DNA of 64,000 bases, from NCBI GenBank assembly GCA_043765375.1, contig JAYUJH010000041.1, positions 3,325 through 67,324 of the forward strand, in the 5' to 3' direction. The DNA is from Alphaproteobacteria bacterium. Its GTDB lineage: Bacteria > Pseudomonadota > Alphaproteobacteria > Rickettsiales > UBA998. Of this stretch, positions 49,598 to 62,513 are shown in pieces. Under the pieces are notes generated by a model. The model searched no databases. It worked only from the letters and a program-made list of their open reading frames with translations, and was not told the DNA's origin. Within the stretch, counting starts at the first letter, position 1; the number at the start of each line of letters is the position of its first letter. The position numbers were made by a program, and so were the translations under genes.

Positions 49598-49665
49598 TTT
49601 TATAATATTAGTAAAATCCATGATATATATAAAAATATTTGACAAATGCGTTGATTATAGGTTTG

Positions 49666-52600
49666 ATGGTGGCTATGGAAAATGATGGCAAATTGAAATA
49701 TTATTCATCTGAGCTGGAGCAGCATTTTGGCAAGCATGGTATGTATGATGCGAGTGATGAGCATGATGCTTGCGGGGTTGGTTTGGTCGCAGCGATTGAT
49801 GGCAACCCAAGGCGTGAAGTGATTGATAAAGCGATTGCTGCGCTGAAATCTGTGTGGCATCGTGGGGCGGTGAATGGTGATGGCAAAACGGGCGACGGTG
49901 CGGGAATCCATTTGCAATTACCGCATAATTTTTTCGCAAGCGTTGTGCCAACATATGCACAAGCGATTGCTGAAGGCGCGCCTGTTGGGGTGGGAATGTT
50001 GTTTCTGCCACGCACAGATGCGGGAGCGCAGGAAGAGGCAAAACTGATTATTGAAACGGAGATTGCTCGCCTTAATATGCGCATAATAGGGTGGCGACAA
50101 GTGCCAATTCGCCCTGAAATTATTGGTGATGATGCTAATTTCACTCGCCCTGAAATTATGCAGGTGTTTATTCGTGGTGCTGTTGCGCCCCTTAAAAATA
50201 TATTCACCCCCCCTCCCAACCTCCCCCCGCAAGGGGGGGAGGAGCCGTTTGCGAACGACCCTCCAGAGCAAAAACGAGGGGAGGAGCTGTTTGCGAACGA
50301 CCCCCCAGAACAGAAAATGAGCTTTGCTTCTACGCAAAAAATGGAGCAGGAGTTTAGCGCAGACAATGCGCAGAGGGATAAAAATAATGATGAGTTTGAA
50401 CGCAATTTATATATTATTCGCCGTCGTATTGAGCGTAAATTACGGCAAGCAGCGATTAATGATTGCTATATTTGCTCGCTTTCAAGCCGTATTATAATTT
50501 ATAAAGGCCTGTTTCAAGCATCGCATTTGAGTGTGTTTTATCCTGAATTGAACAATCCGTTGCTTGTTTCATCATATGCTATTTTTCATCAGCGATTTTC
50601 CACTAATACCGCACCAAGTTGGGCGATGGCGCAGCCTTTTCGTATGGTAGCGCATAATGGTGAGATTAACACGCTTCGTGGCAATGTGAACTGGATGAGC
50701 AGCTATGAGGCTTGTTTTGGGGCGGAAGTTTTTGCCCATGCGATTGAGGATTTAACCCCGATTGTGCCACCGAGTGGTTCTGACACTGCAATGCTTGATG
50801 CGGTGATGGAGTTTATCACTTTATCAGGCAAGAAATTACCATTTTCAAAGTTGATGTTGATTCCGCCAGCTTGGCGCAAAGATGATGATTTGATTGAGGA
50901 TTCACACAAAGCATTATATGAATATGCAAATTGTTTAATGTCACCATGGGACGGCCCCGCAGCGATTGTGGCGTGTGATGGTAATTGGGTGGTTGCAGGG
51001 ACTGACCGCAATGGGTTGCGCCCTTTGCGTTATGCGATAACTAAGGATGGGTTGCTTACCGTTGGTTCAGAAACTGGAATGGTAGCATTAGCGAGTGATG
51101 ATGTGTTGCACTTGGGGCAGCTTTCACCAGGGCAGTTGATCGGGGTGGATTTATGCACGGGTAAATATTACGGTGATGTGGAGCTGAAAAATTATTTGGC
51201 AAGTGCAGCTGATTATGCAGACAAAATCGCTAATATTAAAGAGATTAGGATTGGGGGGGTTAAGGTTGTTGAAGATGATGTTAATCAAAATGAAGTATTA
51301 AATATATCTGAGAATGATAATCAATCGCATGATGTTAGTTCGCTATTAAATCAGCAATTTGCAGCGGGATTTTCGGCAGAAGATATTGATATGATAATAT
51401 TGCCAATGTTGCGTGATGGCAAGGAGGCTGTTGGTTCAATGGGTGATGATACGCCTTTGGCAGTGATGTCTTCACATTATCGTGGGTTGCATCATTTTTT
51501 CAGGCAGCATTTTTCACAAGTAACCAATCCACCGATTGACCCGTTGCGTGAGGCTCATGCGATGAGTTTGGCGACAAAAGTTGGTATGGTGCGCAATATT
51601 TTGGGAGAAAATCCAGATTTATCAGCGATAGTTCATTTGGATACGCCAATTTTGATGCAAGCGGAAATGCAAGCATTGCTCGCACATTTTGCGGGGCTTC
51701 ATTCATGTGTGTTGGATTGCACTTATGGCGCAAGCGATGATGCAGATGCGTTGCGTAATGCGATTGATGAATTAATCATGCAAGCTGATGACGCAATCAA
51801 GCATGGGGCGCAAATGCTGGTTTTATGTGATATGAACGCGGGGGCGGATAGGTTGGTTATTCCAGCAATTTTGGCAGCGGCAGCCGTGCATACTCATATG
51901 GTGAATCTGCGCAAACGTAAGCAATTATCAATTATTTCACGAACATCATGTGTGTGTGATACTCATAGCATGGCAGTGCTGATTGGCGTGGGAGCAACGG
52001 CGGTATATCCATATTTGATGGAGCAAACGGCTCGGAGTTTATGCGATGCTGGTAAGGTGAAATATGTAACAAAAACTTTACCAATACAATCTTCAGTTAT
52101 ACCCTCTCCTCAACCCACTTTTCCCTCTCCCCTAGCCCCTCTCCCAGAGGGCGAGGGGAACTCTCTCAAAAATCATATTGCCCTCTCCCCACCAATTACC
52201 TCACCCCTCACCCCTACCCTCTCCCAAGGGGAGAGGGAGGCACTCAATCAGCAGCATTACTCTAAATTAAGCCGATATATGGTTGAGTTTGCTAGAGAAT
52301 TGCGTCAGAACTCCTCAAACGTGCAGCAAGCATTATGGCAAGTTTTACGCAATAGTAATTTACAAGTCAAGTTTCGTAGGCAACACCCGATTGATAACTT
52401 AATTATAGATTTTTATTGCCATGAATTAAAATTAGGAATTGAGATATTTAAGGTTAAGGCAGAATTATCAAAACAACAATATCTGCAAACTAAAAATATT
52501 AAATTATTACAATTTGATAATCAAGAAATGCTGAAAGATGTTGGTAAGTTCATAAATATCATTATTGATGAAATTGAAATGCGCCAGAAACTCAGCATTC

Positions 52601-55176
52601 AAGATAAAGACAGCATTCAAAAATATAGTTCTGGATTTAGCGTTCCCTCTCCCAAAGGGAGAGGGCAGGGTGAGGTTATCTCCCCTCTCCTCATAGGAGA
52701 GGGGCAGGGGGTGAGGTCTGGTAGTGATATTTCTATAATTGAGTTTGAGCAAGCTATTAAAAATCTGCGTCATGCTTATGAACAGGGTATGTTGAAGATT
52801 ATGTCAAAAATGGGCATTTCGGTGATAAGTTCGTATCGTGGAGGGCGCAATTTTGATGCAATTGGTCTATCACGTTCACTGGTGGCGGAGTTTTTTCCGG
52901 GGTTGGTTTCTCGCATTTCGGGGATTGGGTTGCAGGAGTTGCAGCGTAAAATCAAGGATTTGCATGATGTGGCTTATAATAAAAAAAATCCGTTAGCAAT
53001 TGGGAGCCTACCAATAGGGGGCCTACCAATTGGAGGCCTACCAATAGGAGGATTTTATCGTTATCGCAATAATGGTGAAAAACATGCTTATGAAGGTGAA
53101 TTAATTCATCGTTTGCAAACGGCATGTGCTACGGGGAGTTATAAACAATATCTAGATTTCGTCAGTGGAGTTGCTAAGCAAGAAGCAATTCACATACGTT
53201 CACTGTTTGAGTTTAACTCGGATCGCAAAGCAATTTTGTTGCAGGAAGTGGAATCTGTGCAAAATATTCGCAAGCGTTTTGTTGCCCCCGCCATGTCACT
53301 TGGGTCGCTAAGTCCAGAGGCACATCATACGCTAGCAATTGCTATGAACCGTATCGGAGCGGCGAGTAATTCGGGCGAAGGTGGTGAAGGAGCAGAGCGA
53401 TATTATCCGTTAGCCAATGGTGATAATCCTAATTCTAGCATCAAACAAGTTGCATCGGGGCGTTTTGGGGTAACAGCGCAATATTTGCAACATTGCTCGG
53501 AGATTCAAATAAAGGTGGCGCAAGGAGCAAAACCGGGTGAAGGGGGGCAGTTGCCATCATTCAAAGTGACGGCTGAAATTGCTCGGTTGCGCCATACAAC
53601 TATTGGCACAATGTTAATTTCACCACCGCCACATCATGATATATATTCCATAGAAGATTTAGCGCAGTTAATTTATGACCTTAAACAAATTAATCCGAAT
53701 GCGATTGTGTCCGTCAAGTTGGTGGCGCAATCAGGAATTGGGACGATTGCAAGCGGGGTGGTGAAAGCGTTGGCGGATAAAATCATTATTTCAGGGCATG
53801 TGGGAGGAACTGGTGCAAGCCCGCTTTCTAGCATAAAATATGCTGGTGTTCCTTGGGAAATGGGGCTGGCGGAGGTGAGCCAAGTTCTTGCGATTAATAA
53901 ACTCCGTCATAGGGTGCGGTTGCAAACTGATGGCGGTTTGAAAGTTGGGCGTGATATTGTGATTGCCGCTATGCTTGGTGCAGATGAATATGCAATTGGA
54001 ACACTTTCATTGGTGGCGATGGGTTGTTTGATGGTGCGACAATGTCATAGCAACACTTGCCCCGTTGGGATTTGCACGCAAAATGAGCAATTACGCAAGC
54101 ATTTTGATGGCACGCCAGAGAAGGTGATTAACCTGATGAGCTTTATCGCTGAAGATGTGCGTCATATTTTGGCAGATTTGGGTTATTCCTCGCTTAATGA
54201 AATTATCGGCCGCACTGATTTGTTGCGGCAAATGGTGCATGAAAATGCGGATATTAATATGTTGGATTTAACGCCGTTACTCACCCGACCAACTTTACAC
54301 AATGCAGAAATGAAGCAAGATTCACGCCCCTATAACCCTGTTGCAGATGCGTTGGATAGCAAGATTATCGCTGAAGCAGGAGAATCACTAAGGTTGGGGC
54401 AGAAAGTGCAGTTGAATTATACGGTGCATAATACTGACCGAACCATAGGAGCGGGTCTTTCACATTATTTGTTGAAGCATCATAGTGATATGAGTGGTGA
54501 TATGAGACTAACAGATACCATGCTAACAGATAATTTAGTGCAGCTTTCATTGCAAGGGACAGCGGGGCAATCACTTGGAGCATTTTTGGTGCATGGCGTG
54601 GTGATTAATTTGCAAGGTGATGCGAATGATTATGTTGGCAAAGGGCTTTCAGGCGGGCGAATTATTGTGCGCCCTGACCCTGCATCGGGGCTTGTGAGCC
54701 AACAAAATGCAATTATTGGTAACACAGTGCTTTATGGCGCAACTAGTGGAGAATTATATGCGGCGGGGATTGCGGGTGAGCGTTTTGCGGTGCGTAACTC
54801 GGGGGCGATAGCGGTGATTGAGGGTTGCGGTTCAAACGCACTGGAATATATGACTGGTGGTGTGGTGGTGATACTCGGCAAAACTGGTAATAATATAGCA
54901 GCGGGAATGACGGGCGGAATTGCTTATATTTATGATGAAACTTTGATTGATGGGCGGGGATTATTACCGCAATTAATTAATAATGAAAATGTGGTTTGTA
55001 AAAATATGGTTTATAAAAACATAGTTTATAATGGGGTTTCAGATGCGGAGCATATTGTGAAATTGCAGCAATTAATTGAAAAGCATGTGCGCTATACTGG
55101 TTCAATATATGCGCAAAATATTTTGGAGAGTTGGGAGCAAAGTTTGCAATGCTTTTGGGTGGTGCAACCAAAATAA
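49666..55176 (+). CDS. gltB: glutamate synthase large subunit, with several in-frame insertions
   Basis: All four GltB domains are recognisable: Ntn amidotransferase CGVGLVA...; central FFRQHFSQVTNPPIDPLRE; FMN domain QVASGRFGV...KPGEGGQLP...ISPPPHHDIYSIEDLAQLI; C-terminal GXGXG beta-helix. The start is ambiguous (TTG 49639, ATG 49666, ATG 49675). Length is about 1840 aa, against about 1500 expected. Confidence 0.9.
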   Translation: MVAMENDGKLKYYSSELEQHFGKHGMYDASDEHDACGVGLVAAIDGNPRREVIDKAIAALKSVWHRGAVNGDGKTGDGAGIHLQLPHNFFASVVPTYAQAIAEGAPVGVGMLFLPRTDAGAQEEAKLIIETEIARLNMRIIGWRQVPIRPEIIGDDANFTRPEIMQVFIRGAVAPLKNIFTPPPNLPPQGGEEPFANDPPEQKRGEELFANDPPEQKMSFASTQKMEQEFSADNAQRDKNNDEFERNLYIIRRRIERKLRQAAINDCYICSLSSRIIIYKGLFQASHLSVFYPELNNPLLVSSYAIFHQRFSTNTAPSWAMAQPFRMVAHNGEINTLRGNVNWMSSYEACFGAEVFAHAIEDLTPIVPPSGSDTAMLDAVMEFITLSGKKLPFSKLMLIPPAWRKDDDLIEDSHKALYEYANCLMSPWDGPAAIVACDGNWVVAGTDRNGLRPLRYAITKDGLLTVGSETGMVALASDDVLHLGQLSPGQLIGVDLCTGKYYGDVELKNYLASAADYADKIANIKEIRIGGVKVVEDDVNQNEVLNISENDNQSHDVSSLLNQQFAAGFSAEDIDMIILPMLRDGKEAVGSMGDDTPLAVMSSHYRGLHHFFRQHFSQVTNPPIDPLREAHAMSLATKVGMVRNILGENPDLSAIVHLDTPILMQAEMQALLAHFAGLHSCVLDCTYGASDDADALRNAIDELIMQADDAIKHGAQMLVLCDMNAGADRLVIPAILAAAAVHTHMVNLRKRKQLSIISRTSCVCDTHSMAVLIGVGATAVYPYLMEQTARSLCDAGKVKYVTKTLPIQSSVIPSPQPTFPSPLAPLPEGEGNSLKNHIALSPPITSPLTPTLSQGEREALNQQHYSKLSRYMVEFARELRQNSSNVQQALWQVLRNSNLQVKFRRQHPIDNLIIDFYCHELKLGIEIFKVKAELSKQQYLQTKNIKLLQFDNQEMLKDVGKFINIIIDEIEMRQKLSIQDKDSIQKYSSGFSVPSPKGRGQGEVISPLLIGEGQGVRSGSDISIIEFEQAIKNLRHAYEQGMLKIMSKMGISVISSYRGGRNFDAIGLSRSLVAEFFPGLVSRISGIGLQELQRKIKDLHDVAYNKKNPLAIGSLPIGGLPIGGLPIGGFYRYRNNGEKHAYEGELIHRLQTACATGSYKQYLDFVSGVAKQEAIHIRSLFEFNSDRKAILLQEVESVQNIRKRFVAPAMSLGSLSPEAHHTLAIAMNRIGAASNSGEGGEGAERYYPLANGDNPNSSIKQVASGRFGVTAQYLQHCSEIQIKVAQGAKPGEGGQLPSFKVTAEIARLRHTTIGTMLISPPPHHDIYSIEDLAQLIYDLKQINPNAIVSVKLVAQSGIGTIASGVVKALADKIIISGHVGGTGASPLSSIKYAGVPWEMGLAEVSQVLAINKLRHRVRLQTDGGLKVGRDIVIAAMLGADEYAIGTLSLVAMGCLMVRQCHSNTCPVGICTQNEQLRKHFDGTPEKVINLMSFIAEDVRHILADLGYSSLNEIIGRTDLLRQMVHENADINMLDLTPLLTRPTLHNAEMKQDSRPYNPVADALDSKIIAEAGESLRLGQKVQLNYTVHNTDRTIGAGLSHYLLKHHSDMSGDMRLTDTMLTDNLVQLSLQGTAGQSLGAFLVHGVVINLQGDANDYVGKGLSGGRIIVRPDPASGLVSQQNAIIGNTVLYGATSGELYAAGIAGERFAVRNSGAIAVIEGCGSNALEYMTGGVVVILGKTGNNIAAGMTGGIAYIYDETLIDGRGLLPQLINNENVVCKNMVYKNIVYNGVSDAEHIVKLQQLIEKHVRYTGSIYAQNILESWEQSLQCFWVVQPK
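50205..50320 (+). repeat. in-frame GC-rich hairpin plus 42-nt tandem duplication inside gltB
   Basis: CCTCCCCCC-GCAA-GGGGGGGAGG (50220-50242), followed by two 42-nt units encoding GEEPFANDPPEQKR / GEELFANDPPEQKM. Confidence 0.75.
52085..52735 (+). mobile_element. in-frame insertion in gltB: degenerate DUF559/Vsr-like endonuclease domain flanked by two GC-rich hairpins on each side
   Basis: Core ~52270-52590 encodes FARELRQNSSNVQQALWQVLRNSNLQVKFRRQHPIDNLIIDFYCHELKLGIEI...LLQFDNQEM. Hairpins lie at 52136-52158, 52217-52237, 52645-52665 and 52682-52704. No stop codon. GltB-like sequence resumes at FEQAIKNLRHAYEQGMLKIMSKMG. Confidence 0.7.
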
Positions 55177-61000: not shown

Positions 61001-61609
61001 CTACCGTTGGCGTTTTTTGATATTAGGGTCGTATATTGCAAATATTTTATCATCAAGGGGAAGGTTATAAGTTGCATTATCAAGGGCGATGGTGGTTTCT
61101 TCGCCTTTTGCATCACGGGTTAAAATATTTTTCAATATATATGGGCGTTCGCTAAATATGAAACTTATTTCGCCTTCATCGGGGGCTTTGCGGGAGGTGA
61201 TGCGAACAACTTGCACGCCATCAATGCTACTTGCTTCTAGCACTTTAATTTGTTTGTCAGCGAAATTGATGTTGTCGCTAGCGAGGTAGCTAGCAATTGT
61301 TCCTGCAATTGGAATATCGCTAATTTGCTCTAATTCACGGTCATAATAGCGCATAAATGTTCCGCGCGTCACCATGGTGATTGGGGTTGGTGGTGCATAT
61401 TCCCAGCGCATTTTACCCGCTCGTTTGAGATATAGCACGCCTGAGCTAATTTGTCCGTTTGGCGCAATTTGGGTGAAGTTCGCTTTTAATGAACGTATGT
61501 TATTGAGATGTTGTTGCGCTTGTTTTAGCACATTTGCTTCAATTTTTGGTGCAGCATAAACGGGATTGGTTAGTAACATAAAGAGAATTATTAATGATAA
61601 ACCCCTCAC
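61001..61609 (-). CDS. lolA: outer-membrane lipoprotein carrier protein LolA
   Basis: LolA block GVLYLKRAGKMRWEYAPP. Start set to GTG 61609, giving the signal peptide (M)RGLSLIILFMLLTNPVYA/AP. The track ORF extends to 61903 only by reading through the hairpin repeats. Confidence 0.82.
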   Translation of the reverse strand: MRGLSLIILFMLLTNPVYAAPKIEANVLKQAQQHLNNIRSLKANFTQIAPNGQISSGVLYLKRAGKMRWEYAPPTPITMVTRGTFMRYYDRELEQISDIPIAGTIASYLASDNINFADKQIKVLEASSIDGVQVVRITSRKAPDEGEISFIFSERPYILKNILTRDAKGEETTIALDNATYNLPLDDKIFAIYDPNIKKRQR

Positions 61610-61614
61610 CCCAA

Positions 61615-61730
61615 CCCTCTCCCGCAAGGGGAGAGGGAGAAAAGGAGTTCTCTCCCGCAAGGGGAGAGGGAGCAGAAGAGTTCTCTCCCGCAAGGGGAGA
61701 GGGAGCAAAAGAATTCTCTCCCGCAAGGGG
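61615..61730. repeat. tandem array (33-nt period, 4 units) of GC-rich GCAA-loop hairpins
   Basis: CTCTCCC-GCAA-GGGGAGAG occurs at 61617, 61650, 61683 and 61716 (the last is truncated), separated by GGAGNAGAAGAGTT-type linkers. Located between recR and lolA. Confidence 0.9.
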
Positions 61731-61892
61731 ATTTGTGGCGAATAAGTTATCTGTTTCAATGGAAGATGAAGGCATGAAAGGATCCTGAAAAAACTATCCC
61801 GCCCACTGCACGGTTGAAACATAAAATGCTTGACGTTTGGCAGGATTGGTGGCTTATATGTCGTGATAGGTTTGTAAAAAACATTCAAAATA

Positions 61893-62513
61893 TTAAATCG
61901 CATAACGAGCCTTCATGGCGGCGGCTAATGTTCCATCATCAAGATAATCCAGTTCGCCACCGATTGGGATTCCTTGCGCTAATTTGGTAATTTTAATGTT
62001 AGCAAATTGTAGTTCATTAATCGTATCATGCAGATAATGTGCGGTGGTTTGCCCATCTGTGGTGATGTTAGTCGCCAAAATAACCTCTGTGACATTGTTG
62101 GTTTTGATACGGGCAAGCAACTGATTAACGCCTAAATGCTCGGGATTAACGCCATCAATCGCTGAGAGAACCCCGCCTAATACATGATAAACCCCACGAT
62201 AAAGCCCTGAACGCTCCATTGCCCATAAATCAGCAATATCTTCAACTACACACAAAACATTATGTTCACGCCGTTCATCTTCACAAATATGGCATGGGTC
62301 GCATACGTCAAAATTGCGACAAATGCTGCAAGTTTTTATGTTATCCGCTACATTTTGTAATTGAGCGATTAATGGCAATAAGGCGGATTCTCGCTTGCGC
62401 AACAAGTGAAGTGCAACTCGGCGGGCGGAGCGTGAGCCAAGGCTTGGCAGACGTGACAGCGAAAAGATTAGCTGCTCCATGGCGTTTGGGGTGAGTTGTT
62501 TCATAAGTGACAA
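61893..62513 (-). CDS. recR: recombination protein RecR
   Basis: HhH N-terminus (LPSLGSRSARRVALHLL), C4 zinc finger (CSICRNFDVCDPCHIC), Toprim domain. Confidence 0.93.
   Translation of the reverse strand: MSLMKQLTPNAMEQLIFSLSRLPSLGSRSARRVALHLLRKRESALLPLIAQLQNVADNIKTCSICRNFDVCDPCHICEDERREHNVLCVVEDIADLWAMERSGLYRGVYHVLGGVLSAIDGVNPEHLGVNQLLARIKTNNVTEVILATNITTDGQTTAHYLHDTINELQFANIKITKLAQGIPIGGELDYLDDGTLAAAMKARYAI

Follow-up and report, generated by a model that had tools for sequence, protein, structure and literature searches.

A degenerate DUF559 nuclease domain between BoxC/TMECO repeats inside gltB: probably an old copy, now immobile, of a widespread mobile cassette

The window analysed here is a stretch of 64,000 nt from an Alphaproteobacteria bacterium of the Rickettsiales (UBA998; contig JAYUJH010000041.1), and it carries gltB, the gene for the large subunit of glutamate synthase, interrupted in frame by a segment of different origin. 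This segment is probably an old and now immobile copy of a widespread mobile cassette, in which a YcjD-type DUF559 gene lies between inverted copies of the repeat named BoxC, PIT motif or TMECO. Outside gltB, BoxC/TMECO repeats and YcjD-type DUF559 nucleases travel together across phyla.

The gltB open reading frame (ORF) consists of 1845 codons with zero internal stops, and the start chosen by gene callers at 49651, four codons downstream of the start of the ORF, gives a protein of 1841 aa (P0121). GltB chains with solved structures found by sequence search of the Protein Data Bank (PDB) have 1472-1520 aa, consistent with the excess length pointed out in a preliminary description of this DNA. 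Pfam domains found in the product were GATase_2, Glu_syn_central (in two stretches), Glu_synthase and GXGXG, plus DUF559. All catalytic blocks of the host enzyme are conserved, the ratio of non-synonymous to synonymous substitution rates (dN/dS) against relatives is 0.09-0.14, and the closest named GltBs in a homology search were those of metagenome-assembled genomes labelled 'Rickettsiales' or 'Alphaproteobacteria bacterium', at about 60% identity. Alignment to Azospirillum GltB runs to query residue 797 and picks up again at 1035. Together with an insert-free relative this set the extent of the in-frame segment (Table 1), which had been described as about 650 nt without GltB character. The same description placed it in an inter-domain linker; however, the insert interrupts Pfam's model of the central domain at position 234 of its 277 positions, and the site is therefore a length-variable loop within that domain.

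The core of the insert matched the DUF559 profile (PF04480) with an E-value of 2.1e-16 over profile positions 4-108 of 109; it scored 60.2 bits when the whole protein was used and 64.6 bits when the insert was taken by itself, the gathering cut-off being 20.6 bits. When the gltB product was searched against the PDB, the sole match other than GltB was the DUF559 protein 3hrl. An AlphaFold2 (AF2) model of the insert gave a core (insert residues 70-185) with a predicted local distance difference test (pLDDT) score of 88-97 and disordered flanks (pLDDT 47-69). Foldseek aligned this model to 3hrl with a target-normalised template-modelling score of 0.88, a root-mean-square deviation of 1.7 A and 32% identity, followed by the homing endonuclease I-Bth0305I (3r3p, E 2e-4). 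Vsr, DUF559 and 3r3p fall in one PD-(D/E)XK group (Steczkiewicz et al., PMC3424549). The DUF559/Vsr-like core recognised in the preliminary description is thus well founded.

The insert was aligned with 43 homologues from many phyla, of which the closest is 44% identical. The gltB copy retains the invariant W, F-RRQHPI, DFYCH and E of the family, while an 8-residue deletion takes out the near-invariant D-G-x-x-H, in keeping with the shortened and degenerate segment noticed earlier after KLGIEI, and both D-x-x-R and the Arg of 'RF-N' are substituted. The D-G..H and D..R columns are at least 90% conserved across the DUF559 family. Within the family motif D...E-x-D-G-x-x-H...D-x-x-R, the window and its relative P0122 keep just the D51 equivalent (IIDF) and the Glu. 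Vsr D51, H64, H69 and D97, and their counterparts in the EDxHD enzyme I-Bth0305I, bind metal or serve as general base (PMC3239194). Since the equivalents of H64, H69 and D97 are gone and that of D51 is left, so that three of the four are lost, the gltB copy is very probably nuclease-dead. It resembles the YcjD/DUF559 and Vsr-EDxHD group (3hrl, 1vsr, 3r3p; PMC3424549, PMC3239194) in sequence, in predicted fold and in its FRRQHPI-DFYCH-E block. Unlike its YcjD/DUF559 relatives, it has neither D-G..H nor D..R, and it lacks start and stop codons of its own. The EDxHD enzymes described so far are intron- or intein-borne or free-standing, with NUMOD DNA-binding domains, and the gltB copy has neither.

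The core is bracketed by hairpins. Two stem-loops had been reported on each side, and this count was recovered at positions within 1-2 nt of those first given: the motif CCCTCTCC-N5-GGAGAGGG occurs at 52137, 52217, 52645 and 52683, where none is expected (100 shuffles). On the left each hairpin is preceded by a 9-nt tail, in the layout CCTCACCCC-NN-CCCTCTCCC-loop-GGGAGAGGG, and on the right the reverse complement is found. [quoted passage not shown] Checked against the TMECO units that Holder et al. 2015 list in their Table 1 (PMC4666352), all four units fit CCCTC(T/G)CCC-loop-GGG(A/G)GAGGG followed by GGGTGAGGG within 2-4 nt, or the reverse complement. Judged from their sequence, the insert hairpins are the BoxC/PIT/TMECO intrastrand-triplex repeat (triplex motif, TM) of that study, and they show its hairpin complementarity, triplex formation in them being putative.

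Holder et al. described the TMECO motif, earlier named BoxC or PIT motif, in more than 260 genomes and reported that it forms an intrastrand triplex in vitro; E. coli MG1655 has 23 units, which include five inverted doublets (PMC4666352). The gltB units share with it the sequence and layout CCCTCTCCC-loop-GGGAGAGGG-NNN-GGGTGAGGG, the frequent inverted pairs, and loops that are more variable than stems. Unlike the TMECO repeats of that work, they lie inside coding sequence, use three reading frames and flank a DUF559 gene. The E. coli repeats were stated to be always intergenic and unlinked to mobile elements, with flanking genes that share no function (PMC4666352), whereas all four gltB units are inside the gltB frame. 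The words DUF559 and endonuclease are absent from that paper (PMC4666352), and a literature search of open-access papers found no publication connecting the BoxC/TMECO repeat with a DUF559 nuclease. The arrangement had been thought undescribed; this appears to hold for the link between hairpin and nuclease cassette and not for the hairpins themselves. In a search of the whole window, Rfam at its gathering threshold returned just a tRNA, and the hairpins match no curated RNA family.

Each of the three frames of the repeat is found in use (PSPKGRG, PLPEGEG and LSQRERE), even inside the gltB insert alone, and therefore the conserved thing is the DNA, not the peptide. Its stems are stop-free, the sole stop being a TGA in the G-rich tail in one of the three frames, and it encodes peptides rich in Pro, Gly and Glu that are predicted to be disordered. 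In the right unit 1 the window has AAA as its loop (52654-52656) where the relative L001 (7704-7706) has TTT, with identical stems, as if the hairpin had inverted. Elsewhere in the window, at 61617-61731 within a minus-strand ORF (61001-61903), an array of 3.5 TM-like hairpins of 33 nt, TCTCCCGCAAGGGGAGAGGG with the tail CCTCACCCC, marks the 5' end of a gene resembling lolA. Although the ORF spans the array, its likelier start is a GTG inside the GGGGTGAGG tail, followed by signal-peptide-like sequence. The repeat therefore also occurs without DUF559 in the source genome.

Table 1. Coordinates of gltB and of the parts of its insert in the window
Feature	Position	Strand	Remarks
gltB (glutamate synthase large subunit) ORF	49639..55176	+	1845 codons; all four GltB domains found
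Whole cassette-derived in-frame insert	52066..52740	+	aa 810-1034, 225 codons (675 bases); set by insert-free relative L003/P0123 and Azospirillum GltB alignment
Left junction spacer VTKTLPIQSSVI	52066..52101	+	its motif AACAAAAACT reappears in the P0124 scar
Repeat half-site CCCTCTCCTCA	52102..52112	+	repeat family D2
Left TM/BoxC unit 1	52123..52157	+	C-rich tail 52123-52131 and hairpin 52137-52157; translates SPLAPLPEGEG
Repeat half-site CCCTCTCCCCA	52181..52191	+	repeat family D2
Left TM/BoxC unit 2	52205..52237	+	tail CCCTCACCC 52205-52213 and hairpin 52217-52237; LTPTLSQGERE, frame differs from unit 1
DUF559 (YcjD-type, Vsr/EDxHD-fold) nuclease domain, degenerate	52282..52575	+	aa 882-979; Pfam, PDB 3hrl sequence match, alignment, AF2, Foldseek
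C-terminal helix extension and spacer	52576..52644	+	17 of its codons missing in relative L001
Right TM/BoxC unit 1	52645..52675	+	hairpin 52645-52665 and G-rich tail GGGTGAGG 52668-52675; PSPKGRGQGE
Right TM/BoxC unit 2	52682..52716	+	hairpin 52682-52704 and tail 52709-52716; PLLIGEGQGVR; GEGQG scar in P0124
Right junction spacer SGSDISII	52717..52740	+	junction alignment

The same combination of repeat and nuclease was found well beyond the window. A scan of one genome per species with a 17-sequence alignment as query gave 80 DUF559 loci, to which 40 metagenome loci were added (120 in total). The 80 genome loci come from at least 10 phyla, among them Chloroflexota, Bacteroidota, Pseudomonadota, Patescibacteria, Planctomycetota, Verrucomicrobiota, Cyanobacteria and Nitrospirota. 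A hairpin with at most 2 mismatches lies within 350 nt of the DUF559 sequence in 56 of them, and in the same loci hairpin density is 2.4 per kb near DUF559 and 0.11 per kb further off, a difference of about 22-fold. The most frequent layout is that of the window, a C-tail unit, DUF559 and a G-tail unit, and the order G, DUF559, C and two-sided doublets were also seen. The upstream hairpin usually ends 40-55 nt ahead of the domain, and the downstream hairpin begins 1-50 nt past it. Many further hairpin-DUF559-hairpin units thus exist across phyla, stand-alone or inside unrelated proteins, as expected of a mobile cassette and in agreement with the earlier suggestion of a selfish, hairpin-bounded nuclease element.

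In E. coli K-12, the ycjD stop codon sits in the loop of a TM-like hairpin (...RSPSP-stop; locus L084, NC_000913.3 1351160-1351830), and TMECO#9 follows 170 nt downstream of the gene. In the interval from the ycjD hairpin to TMECO#9, part of the ycjD 3' end is duplicated. Of 5426 complete E. coli genomes, 3378 have ycjD, which is a single-copy gene. Strains without ycjD were considered as a clean empty site and rejected as such, as the eefRABC efflux operon adjoins fabI where K-12 has ycjD; homology in these strains stops about 40 nt from TMECO#9.

Residence within a host protein proved to be common. With embedded copies defined as DUF559 in an open frame that continues for 100 aa or more upstream and for 85 aa or more downstream, 30 of the 120 loci carried an embedded, in-frame copy, compared with 1 of 240 control frames, and hairpins accompanied 29 of the 30 embedded copies against 33 of 77 stand-alone copies. 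Hosts with Pfam domains on both sides of DUF559 include methionine synthase MetH, leucyl-tRNA synthetase (at two different sites), the HrpA helicase and riboflavin synthase (RibE), as well as Maf, the YgiQ radical-SAM protein, HsdR, HsdM and HsdS, and type IIG and N6/N4 methyltransferases. The gltB case is therefore one member of a general class: the insertion itself stands as first reported, its uniqueness does not. The motif D..E-x-D-G..H is intact in 30 of 30 embedded copies of other hosts, and the gltB copy, as far as these alignments indicate, stands out from them solely by its catalytic loss. A DUF559 profile search returned 46,411 representative clusters; among the best 150, about 42 have a length of at least 250 aa. 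Some family representatives hold 2-3 copies within one protein; an HsdR frame (L071:2018-5299) carries two separate DUF559 inserts (two Pfam stretches, 235 bits), and a type IIG methyltransferase (L004:1562-5272) has, besides its DUF559 insert, at least 6 nuclease-less repeat-encoded peptides (...LPSPSGRGAGGEG...) in frame elsewhere.

The frequency of in-frame copies bears on whether the insert persists in the mature enzyme. Were it removed beforehand, either as an intron-like RNA via the flanking inverted repeats or in the manner of an intein, mature GltB would be normal; the long inverted repeats in the flanks could bring the junctions together, and introns or inteins are the usual home of homing endonucleases (PMC3239194). 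However, excision of RNA needs no frame, yet a quarter of the sampled copies are in frame, and the gltB core is constrained at the amino-acid level in the host frame. Pfam finds no Hint/intein domain, the junctions KY/VTKT and SII/EFEQ offer neither a Cys/Ser/Thr nucleophile nor His-Asn, and Rfam with permissive filters (E up to 10) over 51800-53000 gave chance-level matches only, at most 21 bits and far under gathering scores. Removal before the enzyme is made is for these reasons extremely unlikely, and an intein or a group I/II intron was ruled out on the absent Hint domain, the wrong junction residues and the lack of any intron covariance model match.

Comparison of the window with L001 allowed selection on the insert to be estimated. 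The host gltB of this pair gives a dN/dS of 0.11 at a dS of about 1.1, and the DUF559 core (106 codons) has a dN of 0.166 and an omega of 0.108, which is only approximate because dS is saturated. In the N-terminal half of the core, 13 non-synonymous differences stand against 25 synonymous ones, and omega in the C-terminal half is 0.28. Given that the omega of the core is close to that of the host, the segment appears to be translated in the gltB frame and constrained at the protein level, so that the insert would be made as part of GltB. Nucleotide identity between the two sequences is 70/74 (95%) in the repeat stems, 33/34 in the tails and 6/12 in the loops, compared with 57/120 in other non-core insert sequence and 60/99 at third codon positions of the core, which suggests that the repeats either are under nucleotide-level constraint or have been homogenised through conversion from other copies.

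Conservation of a dead nuclease could also reflect exaptation, the former nuclease having been given a new role in GltB, for instance in binding nucleic acids or proteins, in regulation or in assembly. The low omega of the core with its especially conserved N-terminal half, the retention of the helix-helix and FRRQHPI/DFYCH block with the catalytic positions gone, and the persistence of the domain over a divergence with dS above 1 would all fit such a role. However, relatives whose GltB is otherwise equally conserved have lost the insert cleanly (P0123, P0125) or down to a 16-residue scar (P0124), no partner or function can be named, and equal rates in host and insert are what a folding constraint predicts. 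Exaptation is accordingly held to be unlikely, and the remnant of a once mobile cassette is preferred.

The history of the gltB copy was reconstructed from relatives. The insert of P0121 is identical in the independent assemblies ERZ27314324 and ERZ28574377 (different samples, different assemblers), which differ solely in a tandem repeat at another place in gltB, expanded by 126 nt, and it is also present in a diverged lineage from two more projects, L001 (JGI) and L002 (ENA). A repeat-induced chimera or a dead gltB might be feared in metagenome assemblies of a repeat-rich region, particularly as a 42-nt tandem repeat elsewhere in the gene differs between assemblies. Against this stand the agreement between assemblies and lineages, the 1845 stop-free codons and the strong conservation of the host described above, and we regard the chance of an assembly artefact or pseudogene as negligible.

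Proteins P0122 and P0244 from other freshwater metagenomes, 86.5% identical, share the insert, its site and its deletion (IEIFHVK), and the degenerate motif IEIF(K/H)VK is common to them and the window. P0124 (78% identical) has at this site the 16-residue scar LNETKTQALTNGEGQG, whose DNA retains AACAAAAACT from the left junction and, from the last repeat unit, the 3' arm and tail, GGAGAAGGGCAGGGCGATGAT, with the frame unchanged. In P0123 and P0125 the site is clean. Insert or scar was thus found only in close relatives of 78-87% identity, and unrelated GltBs lack the segment, as does one close relative, supporting its initial description as an insertion. Over most of gltB, P0123 is the sister of P0122 (90% identity; 28 informative sites against 6-13 for the alternatives), with 19 sites against 2 in aa 280-630 plus 1105-1841. 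In aa 630-1105 this signal falls to 0 sites against 3, and nucleotide identity drops from 0.84-0.90 to 0.73-0.78. This pattern is most simply read as a single insertion long ago, with later internal deletion in one lineage and allelic replacement through recombination in others. Two independent insertions at one site were rejected, as both copies share the 8-residue catalytic deletion and the junctions. The proposal that an element had landed in a core enzyme therefore holds as regards insertion, whereas a recent landing does not, the copy being ancient, vertically inherited and catalytically gutted.

The window and P0122 have the insert at this site, P0124 has a scar, and in P0123 and P0125 the site is empty, with a mosaic tract over aa 630-1105. 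Homing endonucleases might also leave such a picture, and past homing with co-conversion may have left a trace similar to that of allelic replacement. The embedded nuclease could on such grounds be thought still at work, homing into insert-free gltB alleles or other hairpin sites: presence and absence at the same site in close lineages, together with the recombinant tract, resemble homing with co-conversion, the fold is that of I-Bth0305I, and the hairpin stems are intact. However, the three catalytic equivalents are gone in both insert-carrying lineages, while embedded copies in other hosts keep the motif throughout. No free-standing copy closer than 44% identity was found among 5.8 billion proteins, the genome and metagenome scans gave nearest sequences of only 36-47% identity, and the window contains no second DUF559. 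A still active element is for these reasons very unlikely, and an old, immobile copy of the cassette is favoured.

A sequence of events can be proposed for this old copy. The cassette entered a length-variable surface loop of the GltB central domain in an ancestor of a group of freshwater alphaproteobacteria, as shown by the shared site, the shared degeneracy and the scar in a further relative. It would then have been read through as linker-domain-linker with the host enzyme surviving. The sequence properties needed for this are present, translation is suggested by dN/dS, and read-through was presumably tolerated because the stems are stop-free and encode flexible linkers. The nuclease later appears, from the alignment, to have lost its H64, H69 and D97 equivalents and with them the ability to cut DNA. 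Selection has since held the domain foldable at the same dN/dS as GltB, 0.11, probably because a misfolded 100-residue module in an essential 200-kDa enzyme would do harm. Its present patchy distribution would have arisen by internal deletion (P0124) and by allelic replacement (the mosaic in P0122 and P0123), the pattern being observed and the process likely. The original movement was most likely a nuclease-triggered, recombination-dependent, homing-like copying that involved the repeat, which is the weakest step.

Extending this to the family, BoxC/TMECO repeats and YcjD-type DUF559 may be two halves of one mobile system, a tentative proposal to which we give slightly less than even credence. 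The nuclease would recognise or cut the repeat structure, both the cassette and nuclease-less doublets would spread by break-induced copying, and host genes would be colonised in frame without splicing. Several points weigh against these proposals. The 120 loci were retrieved by two conserved peptide patterns of one DUF559 subfamily and are a non-random sample, and 23 of the 80 genome loci have no hairpin. As 38% of complete E. coli genomes are without ycjD, the nuclease would be needless for keeping the repeats if such strains carry TMECO repeats. The omega of the core comes from one lineage pair and 106 codons, and purifying selection on a dead domain suits a folding constraint and a new function equally. 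Moreover, neither a target-site duplication nor a conserved target was found at the gltB junctions when the window and L001 were compared with the empty L003; given that the insertion is old, a short duplication could have decayed.

Parallels exist with three known kinds of element. Rickettsia palindromic elements (RPEs) and in-frame MITEs (PMC10969869) likewise consist of a palindromic repeat tolerated as an in-frame peptide in housekeeping enzymes, and as with these, several such insertions occur within one gene, here gltB. RPEs are about 150 bp long, restricted to Rickettsia and without an enzyme domain (PMC10969869), whereas the gltB element has a complete nuclease fold and a repeat shared across phyla. 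The comparison with RPEs made in the preliminary description is apt for in-frame behaviour only. With the REPIN-RAYT system (PMC3116915, PMC3337134) the cassette shares a gene, single-copy in E. coli (ycjD), between inverted copies of a short GC-rich palindrome that is scattered over the genome as well, in many cases as inverted doublets; in E. coli K-12, 1 ycjD goes with 23 TMECO units, among them 5 doublets. The analogy is confined to the architecture, since the partner protein is a PD-(D/E)XK/Vsr-fold nuclease and not a Y1 (HUH) transposase. REPINs are extragenic and the gltB repeats intragenic, and DUF559 is a putative cause of repeat spread. Inteins with homing endonucleases share a selfish nuclease module that sits in frame in conserved proteins, is expressed by the host and occupies the same site in orthologues. 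Unlike them, the module has no Hint domain or splice-junction residues and apparently stays in the protein via flexible repeat-encoded linkers.

Other length-variable sites were observed in gltB. The amidotransferase domain has a second in-frame insert (50176-50373), which Azospirillum GltB lacks. It contains a G/C hairpin of another sequence, CCTCCCCCCGCAAGGGGGGGAGG, and after it a 42-nt tandem repeat (50236-50321) that encodes GEELFANDPPEQKR, with 2 copies in the window and 5 in the otherwise identical L127; a remnant of this insert, FTPPPNLPPQGG, is common to the relative P0244. At 52997-53051 a 15-nt tandem repeat of 3.5 copies encodes IGSLPIGGLPIGGLPIGG and marks a third such site, at which P0122, P0124 and P0129 have other repeat-like inserts (SPARGE- and SPSRGE-type peptides). 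Close to the C-terminus, at 54986-55031, a 15-nt repeat in 3 copies (VCKNMVYKNIVYNG) is missing from relatives. In the relative P0130 an N-terminal GIY-YIG nuclease domain followed by 'CHPERSEGS' is fused in frame, a different small nuclease in the same enzyme.

To our knowledge, BoxC/PIT/TMECO repeats have been catalogued since the 1990s in E. coli and hundreds of genomes with their origin and partner unknown, and DUF559/YcjD is a large family in which we know of few members with a known role. The components were known singly, and it is the association of repeat and nuclease and its in-frame embedding in many hosts that appear to be new. About one quarter of the sampled copies reside in frame in host proteins, some of them essential (leucyl-tRNA synthetase, methionine synthase), and have kept their catalytic motifs, which suggests a route for a selfish nuclease into conserved genes without intron or intein. 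Proteins lengthened by PLPEGEG/SPKGRG repeat peptides and embedded DUF559 may in annotation be mistaken for fusions or errors. The gltB copy would represent the end state, a dead nuclease domain under selection in a core enzyme and a natural, stable domain insertion. If repeat and nuclease are indeed two halves of one system, this would provide a function for E. coli ycjD and an origin for BoxC repeats, and would explain the extra nuclease domains in leucyl-tRNA synthetase, MetH, HrpA, GltB and many restriction-modification enzymes. It would amount to an intein-like strategy minus the intein, by way of a largely stop-free repeat that encodes flexible linkers. Both the origin of BoxC/TMECO and the role of YcjD are directly testable in E. 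coli K-12, with its one ycjD and 23 repeats.

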